From: Shigella phage ESh36
DNA: 64,000 nucleotides
Reading direction: 5' to 3' (one strand)
Sequence record: ON528746
Position numbers and translations under genes: made by a program. Within the stretch, counting starts at the first letter, position 1. Every line of letters begins with the position of its first letter. Shown piece by piece: positions 34,323-42,994 of this stretch. The notes below the pieces were generated by a model. It searched no databases, was not told the origin of the DNA, and saw only the letters and a program-made list of their open reading frames with translations.

Positions 34323-35910
<1,588 letters not shown>

Positions 35911-35940
35911 AATAAAATGGGCCTTGCGGCCCACTCCTTA
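35911..35940 (-). promoter_or_regulatory. hairpin-split ribosome-binding site of denA (and possible nrdB terminator)
   Basis: mRNA reads UAAGGAG-UGGGCC-GCAA-GGCCCA-UUUUAUU-AUG; the Shine-Dalgarno is 23 nt from the AUG in linear sequence but about 7 nt if the GNRA-tetraloop hairpin forms. Confidence 0.5.
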
Positions 35941-36440
35941 AAAGTATTTTTTAAAACTCATCATAACTTTATCATCAACATCATTATCAATCTGTGCAAC
36001 AAGGTAAGATGACAATTCTACTTCTTGTGGCGCAGATTGAACATTATCAGAATTAAGGTATTCACGAATCCAAGGATATGGATGTTTAACCGGAGCATCG
36101 GTAATTGGGCATGGAAGACCACACTGTTTCATACGAGATACAGTTAAGTAATCAATAAAGCTCCACATGCTATTTGTATTTAATCCAGGAACATCACCAT
36201 CTTTAAATAAATGAACTGCCCAGTCTTTTTCTTGACGGTTAACTTCCATGAAAATATCAACTGCTTCTTGTTCACACTCTTGGGCGATTTTAACCCATTC
36301 ATCACCATCAGTGCCAAGTTGAAGTTGACGAATAATATATTGGGTGCCTTTAAGGTGAAGCTGCTCATCACGTGCAATGAACTTCATAATCTTGGCATTA
36401 CCTTCCATGATTTCCATGTTCTTATGGAAGTTAAAGGTAC
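35938..36440 (-). CDS. nrdB: ribonucleotide reductase small subunit NrdB, exon 2
   Basis: Continues NrdB after the exon 1 stop; ...TFNFHKNMEIMEGNAKIMKFIARDEQLHL... matches E. coli NrdB FAFAERELMEGNAKII; 3' splice site placed by homology and is approximate. Confidence 0.8.
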
Positions 36441-37027
36441 CGTTATGTTCGATTGAGCTCGCTAATTCTCAACCCGTTCTCTTATGAACTGCTACATATT
36501 ACTATGCAGACCAGACTATATCACAATCCCAGAGGGATTCTCCCCATTTCGAGTCGCTTGACCCTACGTCCGAAGACTAGTCGTTGAACCTTGCTTTGCA
36601 ATTGTCGCCGTGCCATCGTTTATATGTTGATGGTGATAAATCTTTCTTATCACAATATGGACAATTCAATTGAATTCTATTTGGATTTAATTTACATCTG
36701 TCATTATGTTTTAGATAAAATCCAGGACCTTTACCAATGTGACCGCAGAAATCACATGTGATTTCTTTTTGTGCAGTCTTAACCATTTCTAATGTTTTTG
36801 CTGATGTCTTTTCTTATGGTCTTCCATCAGAATCTTTAGGTATAGGTCCGTTAGCATCTATCCAAATTTTTCTATAGTTCAATTGTGCATCCTCTTAAAA
36901 GTATAATCATATTTATGTTATACTAATTAAAGGTGCAAGCAAAACCTTGGCTGCTAGTTTTCCTATAAAGGACTTTCCAGCAATTAAAGGAGTTTTCGAT
37001 AAACGTTACCGTTTAAAGGCGCATTTT
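36441..37027 (-). mobile_element. group I intron interrupting nrdB (approx. 587 nt)
   Basis: NrdB frame stops (TAA) straight after ...FYVSFA and resumes about 590 nt downstream; proposed 5' exon ends in U and intron ends in G, as group I rules require; contains a decayed HNH endonuclease ORF. Confidence 0.7.
36577..36882 (-). pseudogene. I-TevIII: decayed intron-encoded HNH homing endonuclease (I-TevIII-like)
   Basis: Reads (L/M)NYRKIWIDANGPIPKDSDGRP-TAA-EKTSAKTLEMVKTAQKEITCDFCGH...CPYCDKKD...; HNH-type N-terminus then in-frame stop, HNH catalytic core missing, zinc-finger-like tail retained. Confidence 0.6.
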
Positions 37028-37703
37028 ACGCAAAAGATACATAAAAACGAATAGCTTCTAAGGCATTAATAACGTGCAAACAGAGGTAAAGAGATTTCAT
37101 TAGCTCACGCTTCCAATATGTCTCATGCTCAATAGCATCTTCAATAACGTCTTCGTCTGCATTAATTTCTTTTTGGTATTCGATATCAGCTTTAGCGTTT
37201 TCCCAATAACGAGTTTTAATCAGAACATCATCATAATAGCGACCGATAGATTCAGCACGTTTCATGATAGCTTCATCTAATACAATCTCATCAAATACCT
37301 TTGACGGATCAGTATAAAGATTTCGCATGATATGAGTATATGAACGACTGTGAATAGTTTCACTAAAAGTCCATGTAGCAACCCATGTATCAAGACTTGG
37401 GTCTGAAAGCAATGGCATAAGTACAGCAGACGGCGCACGACCTTGAATACTATCAAGTAATGATTGATACTTCAGATTATTAGTAAAAATATTTTGTTGA
37501 TACTGAGGAAGCTTATTAAATTGAGTAGCATCCATCATCAAGTTTACTTCTTCAGGACGCCAGAAAAACGAGAGCTGACGTTCAATAAGTTCTTCAAATA
37601 CCCTATGTCGTTGAATATCATAACGCGCAATTCCAAGACCAGACCCAAAAAACATGGGTTCTGTTAAAACATCAACCTGTTTAGTATTAAAAACTGTACT
37701 CAT
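37028..37703 (-). CDS. nrdB: ribonucleotide reductase small subunit NrdB, exon 1
   Basis: 225 codons ending ...LHVINALEAIRFYVSFA; ferritin-like di-iron protein. Confidence 0.85.
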
Positions 37704-39337
37704 TATTTTGTCCTGTAAACTAAATTTCCACAGTCCCAGATTCTTCTAAGACCATTTGCATAACAATTTTCTACTTCAGTTATTGTATCATCATAATTTT
37801 TAAGCTTGTTTTTAAGCTTATGTTTCATATAGCTTGAGCGGTGAAATACCTCTCCTTTATCGACATACCAATAACATGGCTCAGAGATATGACTAAATTC
37901 CATGACAGAGTCATAAACATTTGATAATGTACTGCACCATCTTCGATTGCCATAAGATAGACAATTAATTCCTTTTAATAATTTTGAGGCTCCTCCTACA
38001 ACACAAACCCCCAATTTTGAACACATCCTTAAAAGTTCATCACCTGTGCTATATCTAGATTTACCGATAGAAATAATTTGAACTAACTCATTATTGTAAT
38101 AAAGTCCTTTATACGTATGAGCTCCCGAGCAAAATCCTTGAAGATGATTCTTATTAATAAATTCTTTTGCCTCATCCTTATTAACAAAACGCGCTTTGCA
38201 TTTTCGGGCTGGTATTCTTTCTGATAATCCTAATTTATGCTTTATAATGGATTTCCAGATCTCTCTTTTTGTATCATCAATCCATTCATTTTCGAAGATG
38301 TGAAGTAATTGAATTCCTTGTGCTTCACACATCTCTGTCTTCATCAAATGATAAGTTTCTTTAATTTTATCTGTTTCCTTTGACCCGCTAGAATGCCAAT
38401 AAATTCCATCATATTCTATAGCCATTTTTTTCTCAGGAATGTAAATATCTAATTCATACGGAGGAATAATTTTTCTAGTTTCTACGCAATCAAATCCTAG
38501 ATCTAAAATGAATTGCTCTATAGAACTTTGAGTATAATGAACGTCAATTAGTCCTTTGGATGAAAGAGCTCTATAAGCCGTCATCCGAGAACAATTTGCT
38601 AATTGTTGTAGTTCTTCTATAGAAATTTTGTAATTGATTTTATCTAGTATATCATGATTAATATGACCGTTATTTTTAATAGATTTTCCTATAGATGAAT
38701 ATAACGATGCCTTATATTCTTCAGTCCAATTTAATTTAGTCTTCTTAGATTTTTCGCGAGATTTTTTAGAATGCAGAATATCAACTGATTTACCGTTTTC
38801 TATAACTTTTCTCGCTTCTTTCACACTTTCTAATTGTGAATTATGCGTTACCCCATATCGTTCAATTAAAGTTTTTCTATTTTTATTTCTTGAAATTTTT
38901 TGATGAGTTGTTCCATATTTTTCTAAAGAATTTTTGTGTTGAAGTTCAGACAAATATTTTTTATATTTTTCTTTTCCGCCAAAATTTGTATCACGGCTTT
39001 GAATTCTCTTATCCGCGAAAAATATCCCTGAGCAGGATTTACTACATGTTGCTGGAAATACACGTTTCTTTGCTGTTTTCAGAGAAATGAAATTTCCACA
39101 AACTGCACATTTTAGATCGTTAATGTCAATGCCTTCCATAATTTGGAACACATTGAGCTTAAAATCTATTCCATCAGTTAGAAGAGCTTTATCTTCTTCT
39201 GTTAGTCTAGATTTAAGTTTTTCTTCTCCAAATGGAAGAAACTTTCCGTTTTTGTATATATTATCAAACATAGCGTTATTCTTAGTTAACCACATCCTTG
39301 TGGTAATTATATCATAATTTACAGGATGAACAATCAT
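37703..39337 (-). CDS. modular putative homing endonuclease with Vsr/DUF559-like nuclease motif (mobE position)
   Basis: 544 codons; Cys cluster CAVCGN...CSKSCSG; NUMOD3-like repeats; HTH-like segment; AIEYDGIYWHS...ETDKIK...GIQLLHIFENEW resembling Vsr-like PD-(D/E)xK domains; ATG lies 26 nt inside nrdA 3' end; true start uncertain. Confidence 0.5.
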   Translation of the reverse strand: MIVHPVNYDIITTRMWLTKNNAMFDNIYKNGKFLPFGEEKLKSRLTEEDKALLTDGIDFKLNVFQIMEGIDINDLKCAVCGNFISLKTAKKRVFPATCSKSCSGIFFADKRIQSRDTNFGGKEKYKKYLSELQHKNSLEKYGTTHQKISRNKNRKTLIERYGVTHNSQLESVKEARKVIENGKSVDILHSKKSREKSKKTKLNWTEEYKASLYSSIGKSIKNNGHINHDILDKINYKISIEELQQLANCSRMTAYRALSSKGLIDVHYTQSSIEQFILDLGFDCVETRKIIPPYELDIYIPEKKMAIEYDGIYWHSSGSKETDKIKETYHLMKTEMCEAQGIQLLHIFENEWIDDTKREIWKSIIKHKLGLSERIPARKCKARFVNKDEAKEFINKNHLQGFCSGAHTYKGLYYNNELVQIISIGKSRYSTGDELLRMCSKLGVCVVGGASKLLKGINCLSYGNRRWCSTLSNVYDSVMEFSHISEPCYWYVDKGEVFHRSSYMKHKLKNKLKNYDDTITEVENCYANGLRRIWDCGNLVYRTK

Positions 39338-41576
39338 CTGCTTTAGGAGTTTCTATTTCGTAATCATCAGTACCAGAACCATCGCGGGTATTATGATAAT
39401 AGAAATTTTTAATGCCATAATACCATCCGTATAGCATATCATCAATCATTATTGACATTGGAACCTTTCCTTTTGGAAAAATCTGCGGGTCATAATATGT
39501 ATTCGCTGAAGCTGATTGACATACCCATTTCAGCATAATAGCTACCTGCGTAAGATAAGGTTTATTACCTTTCTTAGCTAATTTCCATGTATAATCATAT
39601 AGGTCTATGTTATGTTCAATATTGGGCACGACTTGATTAAAGGAACCCTCTTTTGATTCTTTAACAGAGACTGGTCCACGTGGAGGCTCGATACCGTTTG
39701 TACTGTTAGAAACTTGGGAAGATGACTCACATGGCATAAGTGCTGATAATGTGCTATTACGGATGCCAAAGAGCTTAAGGTCTTCCCGCAGCGACGACCA
39801 GTCACAAACGTATTTTGGAGCTGCGATTTGGTCAATCTTTTTATTGTACCAGTCGATAGGTAATTCGCCTCGAGACCAACGAGTGTCTGAATAATATTCG
39901 CAAGGTCCTTTTTCTTTGGCGAGCTTAATGGATGCTTTAATGAGTCCATACTGTAATCTCTCAAATAGTTCATGTGTTAAATCGTTAGCATCTTCATAAG
40001 AAGCAAAGTTACTTGCCAGCCAAGCTGCATAGTTGGTAACACCTACGCCAAGATTTCGACGCTTTTTAGCTTTTTCTGCTTCAGGAACCGGATATCCTTG
40101 GTAATCCAAAAGATTATCAAGAGCACGAACTTGAACTTCTGCCAATTCATTAATTTTATCTTGGTCTTGCCAGTCAAAATTATCTAGTACGAATGCAGAG
40201 AGAGTACACAATCCAATTTCAGCATCAGGACTATTCACATCATTTGTTGGAATAGCAATTTCACAGCACAAGTTACTCTGACGAATAGGTGCCTTTTCAC
40301 GAATAAACGGAGTATAGTTATTCGTATTATCAATGAACTGTACATAAATCCTTGCTGTTCCTGAACGTTCAGTCATGAGCAATTCAAACAGTTCACGGGC
40401 TTTAATACGCTTTTTACGAATATTAGGGTCTTTTTCTGCTGCTTCGTATAATTCACGGAAACGGTCTTGGTCTTTAAAATAAGAATAATAAAGTTCGCCA
40501 CCCATTTCATGCGGACTGAACAAAGTAATGTAATCATTCTTTCCGAATCGTTCCATCATTAGGTCATTCAGTTGAACGCCATAATCCATATGACGGATAC
40601 GGTTTTCTTCTACGCCTTTGTTATTTTTCAAAACGAGAAGATTTTCAACTTCCAAATGCCAAATAGGATAATAAGCAGTAGCAGCGCCGCCACGAATTCC
40701 ACCCTGTGAGCATGATTTAACAGCAGTCTGAAAATGTTTCCAAAAAGGAATAACACCAGTATGGCGTACTTCACCCATGCCAATCTTAGAACCTTCGGCA
40801 CGAATCATACCAACGTTAATACCAATTCCAGCGCGTTTAGAGATATATTCAACAATCGAAGCGGAAGCCTTATTGATAGACTTCAATGAATCTCCTGCCT
40901 CAATAACAACACATGAACTAAACTGTCGAGTCGGAGTACGGCAACCAGCCATAATAGGAGTTGGCAATGAAATCTGTCGAGTAGATACTGCTTCATAAAA
41001 ACGAATAACATGTTTTAATCTATCAACAGGTTCATCTTGATGCAATGCCATTCCAATAGTCATAAATGCAAACTGTGGAGTTTCATAAATTTGACCAGTG
41101 GTTTTATCTTTAACTAAATATTTTTCTTTTAATTGCATCGCCCCGGAATAAGTAAATTCCATATCCCGTTCGTGCTTAATTTTTGATTCTAAAAATGTAA
41201 TTTCTTCTGCTGAATATTTTGACAATAATTCAGGGTCATATTTACCTGCATTTACACAATAAGAAATATGGTCAATAAATGAACGTGGTTCATATTGCCC
41301 GTAAACATGCTTACGAAGAGCGAACATTAAACAACGTGCAGCTACATATTGATAATCAGGCTCTTCAACCGAAATAGAATTCGCAGCAGCCTTAATTACA
41401 ATGGTTTGAATGTCATCAGTTGTCATTCCATCACGGAGATATGATTTAATATTTTCATATAATTCATAAGGATCTACAGATGTTCCTTCAGCTGCCCAAG
41501 ATAAAACTTTAATAATTTTTTGCGGGTCAAAGCTCTGAGAAACACCACTACTTTTGATAACATTAATTAATTGCAT
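39312..41576 (-). CDS. nrdA: ribonucleotide reductase large subunit NrdA
   Basis: 754 aa; N-terminal ATP-cone ([31 protein letters not shown]); T4 NrdA length. Confidence 0.95.
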   Translation of the reverse strand: MQLINVIKSSGVSQSFDPQKIIKVLSWAAEGTSVDPYELYENIKSYLRDGMTTDDIQTIVIKAAANSISVEEPDYQYVAARCLMFALRKHVYGQYEPRSFIDHISYCVNAGKYDPELLSKYSAEEITFLESKIKHERDMEFTYSGAMQLKEKYLVKDKTTGQIYETPQFAFMTIGMALHQDEPVDRLKHVIRFYEAVSTRQISLPTPIMAGCRTPTRQFSSCVVIEAGDSLKSINKASASIVEYISKRAGIGINVGMIRAEGSKIGMGEVRHTGVIPFWKHFQTAVKSCSQGGIRGGAATAYYPIWHLEVENLLVLKNNKGVEENRIRHMDYGVQLNDLMMERFGKNDYITLFSPHEMGGELYYSYFKDQDRFRELYEAAEKDPNIRKKRIKARELFELLMTERSGTARIYVQFIDNTNNYTPFIREKAPIRQSNLCCEIAIPTNDVNSPDAEIGLCTLSAFVLDNFDWQDQDKINELAEVQVRALDNLLDYQGYPVPEAEKAKKRRNLGVGVTNYAAWLASNFASYEDANDLTHELFERLQYGLIKASIKLAKEKGPCEYYSDTRWSRGELPIDWYNKKIDQIAAPKYVCDWSSLREDLKLFGIRNSTLSALMPCESSSQVSNSTNGIEPPRGPVSVKESKEGSFNQVVPNIEHNIDLYDYTWKLAKKGNKPYLTQVAIMLKWVCQSASANTYYDPQIFPKGKVPMSIMIDDMLYGWYYGIKNFYYHNTRDGSGTDDYEIETPKADDCSSCKL

Positions 41577-42133: not shown

Positions 42134-42994
42134 TTATACCGCCATCTTTCCTTTAATTGGCGGGTGAGATACATAGTTGTTAAGAACAAAATCTTTAGGC
42201 CTAAGTTTAAGAACATATTTTAATTGTTCTTTAGTAGAAAGATATCGGAATTTATAAGGTAGACCGCCTATTACCAGCTCACAAAGCTCTTTAGGTTCAC
42301 GCCTCAAAATTTCTTTACATTGTTCTACATGATTCATATAGATATGAGTATTACCGCCAGAAAATATCAAATCTCCCGGAATAAGATTACACATCTTAGC
42401 TACAATATGAACTAACGTAGCATATGATGCAATATTAAATGGAAGACCGAGGAAAACATCTACCGAACGTTGATACCACTGCAAATCCAAATAGCCATTA
42501 CGCACATTAAACTGATAGAACATATGACAAGGCGGTAATGCCATATATTTAAGTTCAGCTGGATTCCATGCTGAAACAATTTGACGCCTATCATTTGGCA
42601 ATTTTTTAATACGATCAACAACTTCTATAATTTGGTCTACACCGCCAAAATCGCGCCATTGTTTTCCATAAATTGGACCAAGTTCACCGCTATGGTATCC
42701 TAAATCTTTTGCTTGATTTTCGTAATTTTCATCCCAGACTGTTTTGCCTTGAATTAATGAATCATGTTGAATTAATCGCAAATCATTGACATTTGTACTT
42801 CCCGATAAAAACCATATTAGCTCAGCAATGCAAGCTTTCCAGGCGAGCTTCTTAGTTGTTACGGCAGGAAAACCTTTAGTTAAATCCCAGCGTAATTTAG
42901 TACCGAACAAAGCAATTGTTCCTGTGCCTGTTCGGTCATCGGTTTCATAGCCATTTTCAAAAATGTCTTTAATTAAATCCTGGTATTGTTTCAT
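42134..42994 (-). CDS. td: thymidylate synthase (uninterrupted, intron-less)
   Basis: 286 aa continuous ORF with thymidylate synthase motifs (PPCH...QWYQRSVD); no intron. Confidence 0.95.
   Translation of the reverse strand: MKQYQDLIKDIFENGYETDDRTGTGTIALFGTKLRWDLTKGFPAVTTKKLAWKACIAELIWFLSGSTNVNDLRLIQHDSLIQGKTVWDENYENQAKDLGYHSGELGPIYGKQWRDFGGVDQIIEVVDRIKKLPNDRRQIVSAWNPAELKYMALPPCHMFYQFNVRNGYLDLQWYQRSVDVFLGLPFNIASYATLVHIVAKMCNLIPGDLIFSGGNTHIYMNHVEQCKEILRREPKELCELVIGGLPYKFRYLSTKEQLKYVLKLRPKDFVLNNYVSHPPIKGKMAV

Follow-up and report, generated by a model that had tools for sequence, protein, structure and literature searches.

In a stretch of 64,000 nucleotides from Shigella phage ESh36 (sequence record ON528746), referred to below as the window, the short spacer found between nrdA and nrdB of a Tequatrovirus phage is very probably replaced by a free-standing homing endonuclease gene, hef, an interpretation to which a probability of about 0.9 is assigned. 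Judged by its sequence, the open reading frame (ORF) at this position is hef, a homing endonuclease gene already named and characterised in phage U5. Both the gene and the Vsr-like fold of its nuclease are already known; hef (2005) and the fold (2011) are in this respect rediscovered, and nothing new is added on the nrdA-nrdB hotspot. What is new relative to the first-pass annotation of this DNA is that the gene is the named hef, that its EDxHD assignment was published in 2011, and that a Mom-like GNAT domain makes up the last third of the protein. A homing endonuclease that has been validated by experiment is thereby found to carry such a domain with the essential residues of Mom intact.

The protein, Hef, is probably 522 residues long and would comprise, in order, a C4 zinc ribbon, DUF7487 repeats together with a probable helix-turn-helix (HTH), a Vsr-like nuclease and the Mom-like GNAT domain. 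The repeats and the probable HTH, which vary between family members, would bind the target, and the Vsr-like PD-(D/E)xK nuclease, of the EDxHD kind, would do the cutting. During co-infection with a relative that lacks hef, Hef would cut the DNA of that relative near the nrdA-nrdB junction (in nrdB, according to the literature), and recombinational repair would then copy hef and its flanks from the hef-carrying genome. The identity of hef, the domain folds, both sets of active-site residues, the boundaries of the cassette and the near-identity of hef despite differing flanks were established in the present analysis, and the site-specific cleavage and homing by Hef are taken from the literature.

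Identity of the gene and its place between nrdA and nrdB

The closest match to the ORF in a megablast search of phage records is the GenBank entry AY262133.2 of phage U5, with 99.8% nucleotide identity over 100% of the length, in which the gene is annotated as 'hef: Hef homing endonuclease' and likewise lies between nrdA and nrdB. The two genes differ by three nucleotides and the proteins by one residue (M305L). A match to phrog_3339 ('homing endonuclease', E 1.9e-150) in the PHROGs database agrees with this identification, and the earlier proposal of a free-standing homing endonuclease at the nrdA-nrdB junction is thus well founded. The hef gene of U5 was reportedly described by Sandegren, Nord and Sjoberg in 2005 and shown experimentally to be a homing endonuclease; the abstract of that study is said to state that hef replaces mobE in U5, that cleavage by Hef is site-specific and near its own gene, and that DNA both with and without hef was cut. 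In reviews, the gene is called a 'unique endonuclease' that cleaves nrdB (PMC2988022).

The ORF listing of the window gives a single ORF at 37703..39337 on the minus strand, with 544 codons and a stop, the same extent as hef in the U5 GenBank record. It is unbroken, with zero frameshifts, and every peptide string quoted in the first-pass annotation is found in its translation (CAVCGN, CSKSCSG, KYGTTHQKIS, RYGVTHNSQ, ISIEELQQLANCSRMTAYRAL, IPPYELDIYIPEKKMAIEYDGIYWHS, ETDKIK and GIQLLHIFENEW). According to the same listing, it is flanked upstream by nrdA (39312..41576, minus strand) and downstream by exon 1 of nrdB (37026..37703, minus strand), the gene reported to be cut by Hef (PMC2988022). 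The stop codon does adjoin nrdB as had been described, since the TAA of hef and the ATG of nrdB at 37703 share one base (TAATG), and the ribosome-binding site of nrdB sits within the last hef codons. The first ATG, described as lying 26 nucleotides inside nrdA, is indeed there if the longest ORF is considered, but the real start is most likely M23 at 39271 (MFDNIY...), which gives a coding sequence of 522 residues (37703..39271, minus strand) without any overlap with nrdA. This choice is based on the start of all 39 aligned homologues at the position of M23, the low confidence of residues 1-19 in the AlphaFold model (predicted local distance difference test, pLDDT, <50), and the genome records of phages SG1 and F26, in which hef is given as 522 residues. 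A scan of 37500..39600 for promoters and terminators yielded nothing exceeding chance, which suggests that hef is transcribed as part of the nrdA-nrdB unit.

The wider window represents a T4-like Tequatrovirus, approximately 95% identical to several sequenced phages, and comparison with T2, which is without hef, delimits the inserted cassette. In T2, nrdA and nrdB are separated by a 51-bp spacer; homology of the window to T2 extends to 10 nucleotides past the nrdA stop (TGATATAATT) and restarts about 13 nucleotides before the nrdB ATG at GGA, the nrdB ribosome-binding site. The cassette (37717..39304, minus strand) exactly replaces the spacer and has no counterpart in T2 in the junction alignment. 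Among SG1, SP21535 and U5, hef is 99-100% identical, whereas the flanking genes are 91-99% identical, and over the last ~700 bp of nrdA the phages that carry hef show 99-100% identity to one another. Only 16 of the 389 records that share the 3' end of nrdA carry hef. Such a pattern of sequence identity and distribution would be expected if hef had recently spread horizontally by homing.

The wider family points in the same direction. Residues 75-542 of Hef match phrog_559 (E 1.4e-76), among whose members are endonucleases encoded within group I introns that interrupt terminase genes (PMC11878797), and the genome of phage LIMEstone1 contains four Hef-like genes, all of them free-standing (PMC3296691). 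Members of phrog_559 carry the InterPro VSR signature (PMC11878797), although the family is labelled 'HNH endonuclease'; in light of that signature, the label appears to be a misnomer that will spread into phage annotations.

Nuclease domain and N-terminal modules

Residues 268-365 (38243..38536, minus strand) form a Vsr-like PD-(D/E)xK nuclease domain of the EDxHD type, with Q270, D297, E308, D310, H315, H330 and K333 as key residues. For the analysis of this and the other domains, a family alignment of 40 full-length homologues was built from a search yielding more than 1,870, residue conservation was counted in the 120 best homologues, and the equivalences with I-Bth0305I and Mom given below are based on alignment, not on three-dimensional superposition. 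The sole Pfam signals in this region come from the Vsr clan, namely MTES_1575 (E 4e-5), DUF559 (E 0.011) and Vsr (E 0.13), all of which fall under the curated cut-offs. When the 40-member family profile was compared with the sequences of the PDB, the catalytic domain of I-Bth0305I (3R3P) was the best match (E 7.7e-5); a search of the same sequences with Hef alone returned only a chance match, and the family profile was needed. The AlphaFold model of Hef, with a mean pLDDT of 89.3, leads in Foldseek to E. coli Vsr (1CW0_A; probability 0.99, E 0.067, template modeling score, TM, 0.51). PADLOC assigns to the nuclease domain a weak 'HEase' match (E 1e-4) and nothing else, with no sign of a host defence system in Hef, and no NCBIfam family is matched. 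The Vsr/DUF559-type fold read from the letters alone is therefore upheld by both profile search and structure prediction. It also accords with Taylor et al. (2011), in whose account the Vsr-like EDxHD family includes 'bacteriophage Hef type homing endonucleases' (PMC3239194).

The catalytic residues deviate in part from those of I-Bth0305I. D297, E308, H315, H330 and K333 are invariant in all 120 homologues, with D297 and H315 corresponding to D196 and H213 of I-Bth0305I. The counterpart of E170 is Q270 in the window protein, where 100 of the 120 homologues have E and 19 have Q; N208 corresponds to D310 (D in 65, N in 55), and D222 is represented by H330 throughout. By its sequence, the Hef clade is an 'E/Q-D-x-H-H' variant of EDxHD, and this variant would be functional, given that the Hef of U5 has been reported to be active.

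The possibility that the gene is a diverged orthologue of MobE, or another endonuclease of the HNH or GIY-YIG type, was considered because it occupies the same genomic slot as T4 mobE and because phrog_559 bears the HNH label. This alternative can practically be dismissed: a BLASTP comparison with T4 MobE gives E 0.94, no HNH or GIY-YIG family is matched in Pfam at E<=1, the HNH label is contradicted by the VSR signature of the family (PMC11878797), and the evidence of fold and profile leads to Vsr/EDxHD. MobE orthology is accordingly ruled out, as are HNH, GIY-YIG and NUMOD domains, none of which is matched in Pfam at E<=1. The first-pass annotation had seen no HNH or GIY-YIG motif and had suggested that an endonuclease of a different fold fills the mobE slot, and both statements hold.

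The N-terminal portion of Hef contains three modules. The cysteine cluster noticed earlier is a C4 zinc ribbon (C77, C80, C98 and C102; 39020..39124, minus strand), whose four cysteines are invariant across the 40-sequence alignment and which has weak profile matches to the FCS, YacG and TRASH/L24e zinc-binding domains (E 0.05-0.5). It is followed by helical 'KYG' repeats (38816..39019, minus strand), which had been described as NUMOD3-like; no NUMOD match is obtained in Hef at E<=1 in Pfam, and the repeats instead fall in DUF7487, a presumed DNA-binding region, with a sub-threshold match in the window protein (E 0.0057) and matches in 30 of the 40 relatives (best E 8e-25). As to the HTH-like segment, residues 236-260 (38558..38632, minus strand) plausibly form a putative HTH, since the model places helices at 240-247 and 251-260; the corresponding HTH_11 match is weak (E 0.064-0.13), and support for the earlier suggestion is weak overall. 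Where EDxHD enzymes have an N-terminal NUMOD or HTH region for DNA binding, Hef has the zinc ribbon, the DUF7487 repeats and the weakly supported HTH.

The Mom-like C-terminal domain

Residues ~370-544 (37706..38230, minus strand) form a separate domain of GNAT fold, modelled with the highest confidence of the entire protein (pLDDT 93-98). When the entire Hef model is compared with the PDB by Foldseek, the crystal structure of Mom from phage Mu (8BV8) ranks first (E 2.3e-6), and ordinary GNAT acetyltransferases rank behind it from E 5e-3. Among viral models (BFVD, Foldseek), Hef-like endonucleases come at the top and are followed by Mom of Salmonella phage FSL SP-031 (E 9e-8). Pfam Mom is matched above its gathering score by the relatives P0053, P0057 and P0118, and at E<=0.01 by 6 of the 40 aligned relatives. 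With hhalign, the alignment of the Hef C-terminal region matches that of Mu Mom and 28 homologues over 127 columns (P 74%, E 2.8e-5); the comparison of the Hef family with the lone Mu Mom sequence was too weak (P 5%).

The residues on which Mom depends are largely retained. R111, S124 and R151 are essential in Mom, and H58, D149 and Y159 are among the residues that are essential or important (PMC13219725). Their counterparts in Hef are R437 (conserved in 119 of the 120 homologues), S451 of a GGAS motif (117), R466 (120), H398 (118) and Y475 (116), and D149 is represented by N464, a position occupied by N in 87 homologues and by D in 33. Helices predicted at 500-527 between the last strands are aligned to the start of the Mom insertion (Mom ~175-209), which is HTH-like and required for activity. 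The nuclease and the Mom-like domain occur together, through to the C-terminus, in all 120 best homologues, whereas 52 of these share nothing with Hef upstream of residue ~200. On this comparison of sequences, the pair is the conserved core of the protein and the N-terminal modules are interchangeable; it is also the part that does not vary in a phage protein family of great size, with more than 1,800 homologues detected. A separate observation concerns A0A7T3KDC2 (BFVD; Campylobacter phage F336), a 'putative homing endonuclease' of 182 residues, which contains nothing but the Mom-like domain (44% identity, TM 0.79); it represents either a Hef-like gene that has been split or has decayed, or the domain in free-standing form.

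Since the Mom-like domain always accompanies the nuclease and retains the Mom-type active-site residues, it is inferred to be a functional partner of the nuclease. Most likely, it binds the target DNA through its Mom-type pocket, possibly with a flipped adenine, and a role in dimerisation is possible as well. Real transfer of an acyl or aminoacyl group to DNA by this domain is a tentative proposal, as is the more specific idea that Hef is a two-enzyme protein, in which the Vsr-like nuclease is joined to an active Mom-type transferase that would use an aminoacyl-tRNA or acyl-CoA donor to modify adenine in or near the target. If true, such a transferase could protect the allele that carries hef from being cut again, or its action could be a necessary step in recognising the target; these proteins would be the first homing endonucleases to include a DNA-modifying activity of their own, and the 'Mom-REase restriction-modification' fusions of jumbo phages (REase, restriction endonuclease) would have to be reinterpreted as mobile homing genes. 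The chemistry of Mom, a tRNA-dependent glycylation of adenine that requires glycyl-tRNA and targets N6 in double-stranded DNA, was resolved in 2026 (Silva et al. 2026, PMC13219725), which makes whether Hef modifies DNA a concrete question.

It is also conceivable, if doubtful, that the GNAT domain at the C-terminus is a relic without catalytic activity, acting only as a scaffold in dimerisation or in non-specific contact with DNA, and that Hef works in the manner of I-Bth0305I, which functions without a Mom-like domain (PMC3239194). Degenerate domains are frequent in homing endonucleases, W48 and Y59 of Mom are not kept, D149 has become N in the majority of homologues, and neither Pfam Mom nor any Pfam acetyltransferase family is matched by the window protein. 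The near-invariance of the Mom-type residues speaks against such a relic, however: R437, S451, R466, H398 and Y475 are kept in 97-100% of the 120 homologues, down to ~35% identity to the query, and the domain, which has the top model confidence in Hef, is never lost among the 120 best homologues while N-termini are exchanged freely.

A further alternative, which is improbable, treats the protein as a restriction-modification-like weapon in one polypeptide, the Mom-like domain modifying the adenines of its own genome and the nuclease destroying unmodified DNA of the host or a superinfecting phage. Iyer et al. (2021) predict precisely this for Mom domains fused to REase-fold nucleases in jumbo phages (PMC7824862). 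A protein of phage PA5oct termed 'putative homing endonuclease' is a structural neighbour of the Hef C-terminal domain, and PA5oct is credited with five momylating enzymes (PMC7824862), which may or may not include that neighbour. The conservation of the counterparts of R111, S124, R151, H58 and Y159 of Mom in 116-120 of the 120 homologues would suit this alternative too. Against it, most family members have N in place of D149, and hef is sporadic and near-identical, as expected of a mobile gene. T-even phage DNA is, moreover, already protected by glucosyl-hydroxymethylcytosine. The Hef of U5 has been reported to be site-specific and to act near its own gene, and according to the 2005 abstract it reportedly also cuts DNA that carries hef. 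Other family members are found in typical homing positions, in group I introns (PMC11878797) and as several free-standing copies per genome beside conserved genes (PMC3296691). Taken together, the intron-encoded copies, the multiple free-standing copies and the U5 experiments speak for the Mom-REase members of this family being homing genes.

The interpretation of hef as a homing endonuclease gene with a Mom-like domain has its own weak points, which should be weighed with the evidence above. The cut position rests on one review sentence (PMC2988022) and the 2005 abstract, cleavage and homing being taken from the literature. Given Q270 at the first EDxHD position in this protein and the replacement of the last D by H across the Hef clade, the details of catalysis may differ from those of I-Bth0305I. 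No Pfam Mom match (PF25680) is obtained for the window protein at E<=10, and the Mom residue map was obtained by aligning profiles, at moderate confidence (P 74%), rather than by three-dimensional superposition.

Neighbouring genes and comparison with known systems

Downstream of hef, nrdB is split by a group I intron (36418..37025, minus strand). Rfam Intron_gpI is found at 36492..36732 with 34 bits (E 8e-7), under the gathering score, and at the gathering threshold Rfam gives nothing in 35800..39500. An ORF of 69 residues within the intron (36577..36786) matches the final 65 residues of T4 I-TevIII at 98% identity and, by this alignment, is a remnant even shorter than the already defective I-TevIII of T4. 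As nrdB is likewise split in each of the four hef-carrying relatives inspected, Hef might, by analogy with MobE in T4, mobilise the nrdB intron in trans.

A distinct observation concerns the 3' end of nrdB exon 1 (37046..37345), where nucleotide identity to SG1, SP21535 and U5 is 70-85%, compared with 95-100% in the neighbouring sequence. This patch lies just upstream of the intron insertion site, within the gene reported to be cut by both MobE and Hef, and may have arisen through selection for alleles that resist cleavage or through mosaic co-conversion. Over the full length of exon 1, identity to T2 is 91% for the protein and 87.5% for the DNA, so that many of its changes are presumably synonymous. 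Further upstream, td (thymidylate synthase; 42134..42994, minus strand) is uninterrupted in the window and encodes 286 residues. In SG1 and F26, an endonuclease gene ('homing endonuclease' or 'endonuclease') is located between two td pieces, and nrdA of F26 is split by an HNH gene. Phages that are otherwise similar differ in their complement of mobile elements.

Among the known systems, the closest is Hef of U5 itself (ABI48935.1, AY262133.2; Sandegren, Nord and Sjoberg 2005, Nucleic Acids Res 33:6203), which shares the nrdA-nrdB position, the intron-containing nrdB downstream and a near-identical sequence. Nothing of substance separates the two; the U5 record uses the 544-residue start, whereas the alignment of homologues favours M23. 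MobE of T4 resembles Hef in its nrdA-nrdB slot and its nrdB target, but it is an unrelated protein of 141 residues that belongs to the HNH family.

I-Bth0305I (3R3P; Taylor et al. 2011, PMC3239194) has in common with Hef a Vsr-like nuclease placed behind an N-terminal DNA-binding region. It is, however, intron-encoded, has 266 residues and ends with the nuclease domain, whereas Hef is free-standing, is twice as long and has, in addition, a zinc ribbon and, at its C-terminus, the Mom-like GNAT domain. Mom of phage Mu (8BV8) resembles the C-terminus of Hef in its profile (profile-profile E 2.8e-5), in the retained counterparts of H58, R111, S124, R151 and Y159, and in predicted extra helices aligned to the start of its essential insertion. 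The two differ in that identity is only 19%, D149 is replaced by N, W48 and Y59 are not retained, and in place of the NSES of Mom there is in Hef a GGAS loop similar to the one that binds CoA in ordinary GNATs. In addition, the Mom-like domain of Hef is fused to a nuclease, whereas Mom stands alone, and no modification activity is known for Hef.

The Mom-REase fusions of jumbo phages (Iyer et al. 2021, PMC7824862) combine, like Hef, a REase-fold nuclease with a Mom-family GNAT core; unlike Hef, they have been read as restriction-modification-like and were not connected there to the experimentally shown Hef. No searchable paper joins Hef, Mom and homing endonuclease, two relevant papers lying outside the text that could be read, and the link between Hef and Mom seems not to have been spelled out in the literature. 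With the present comparison, two literatures on the same proteins, one on 'Hef-like homing endonucleases' and the other on 'Mom-REase momylation systems', are linked.

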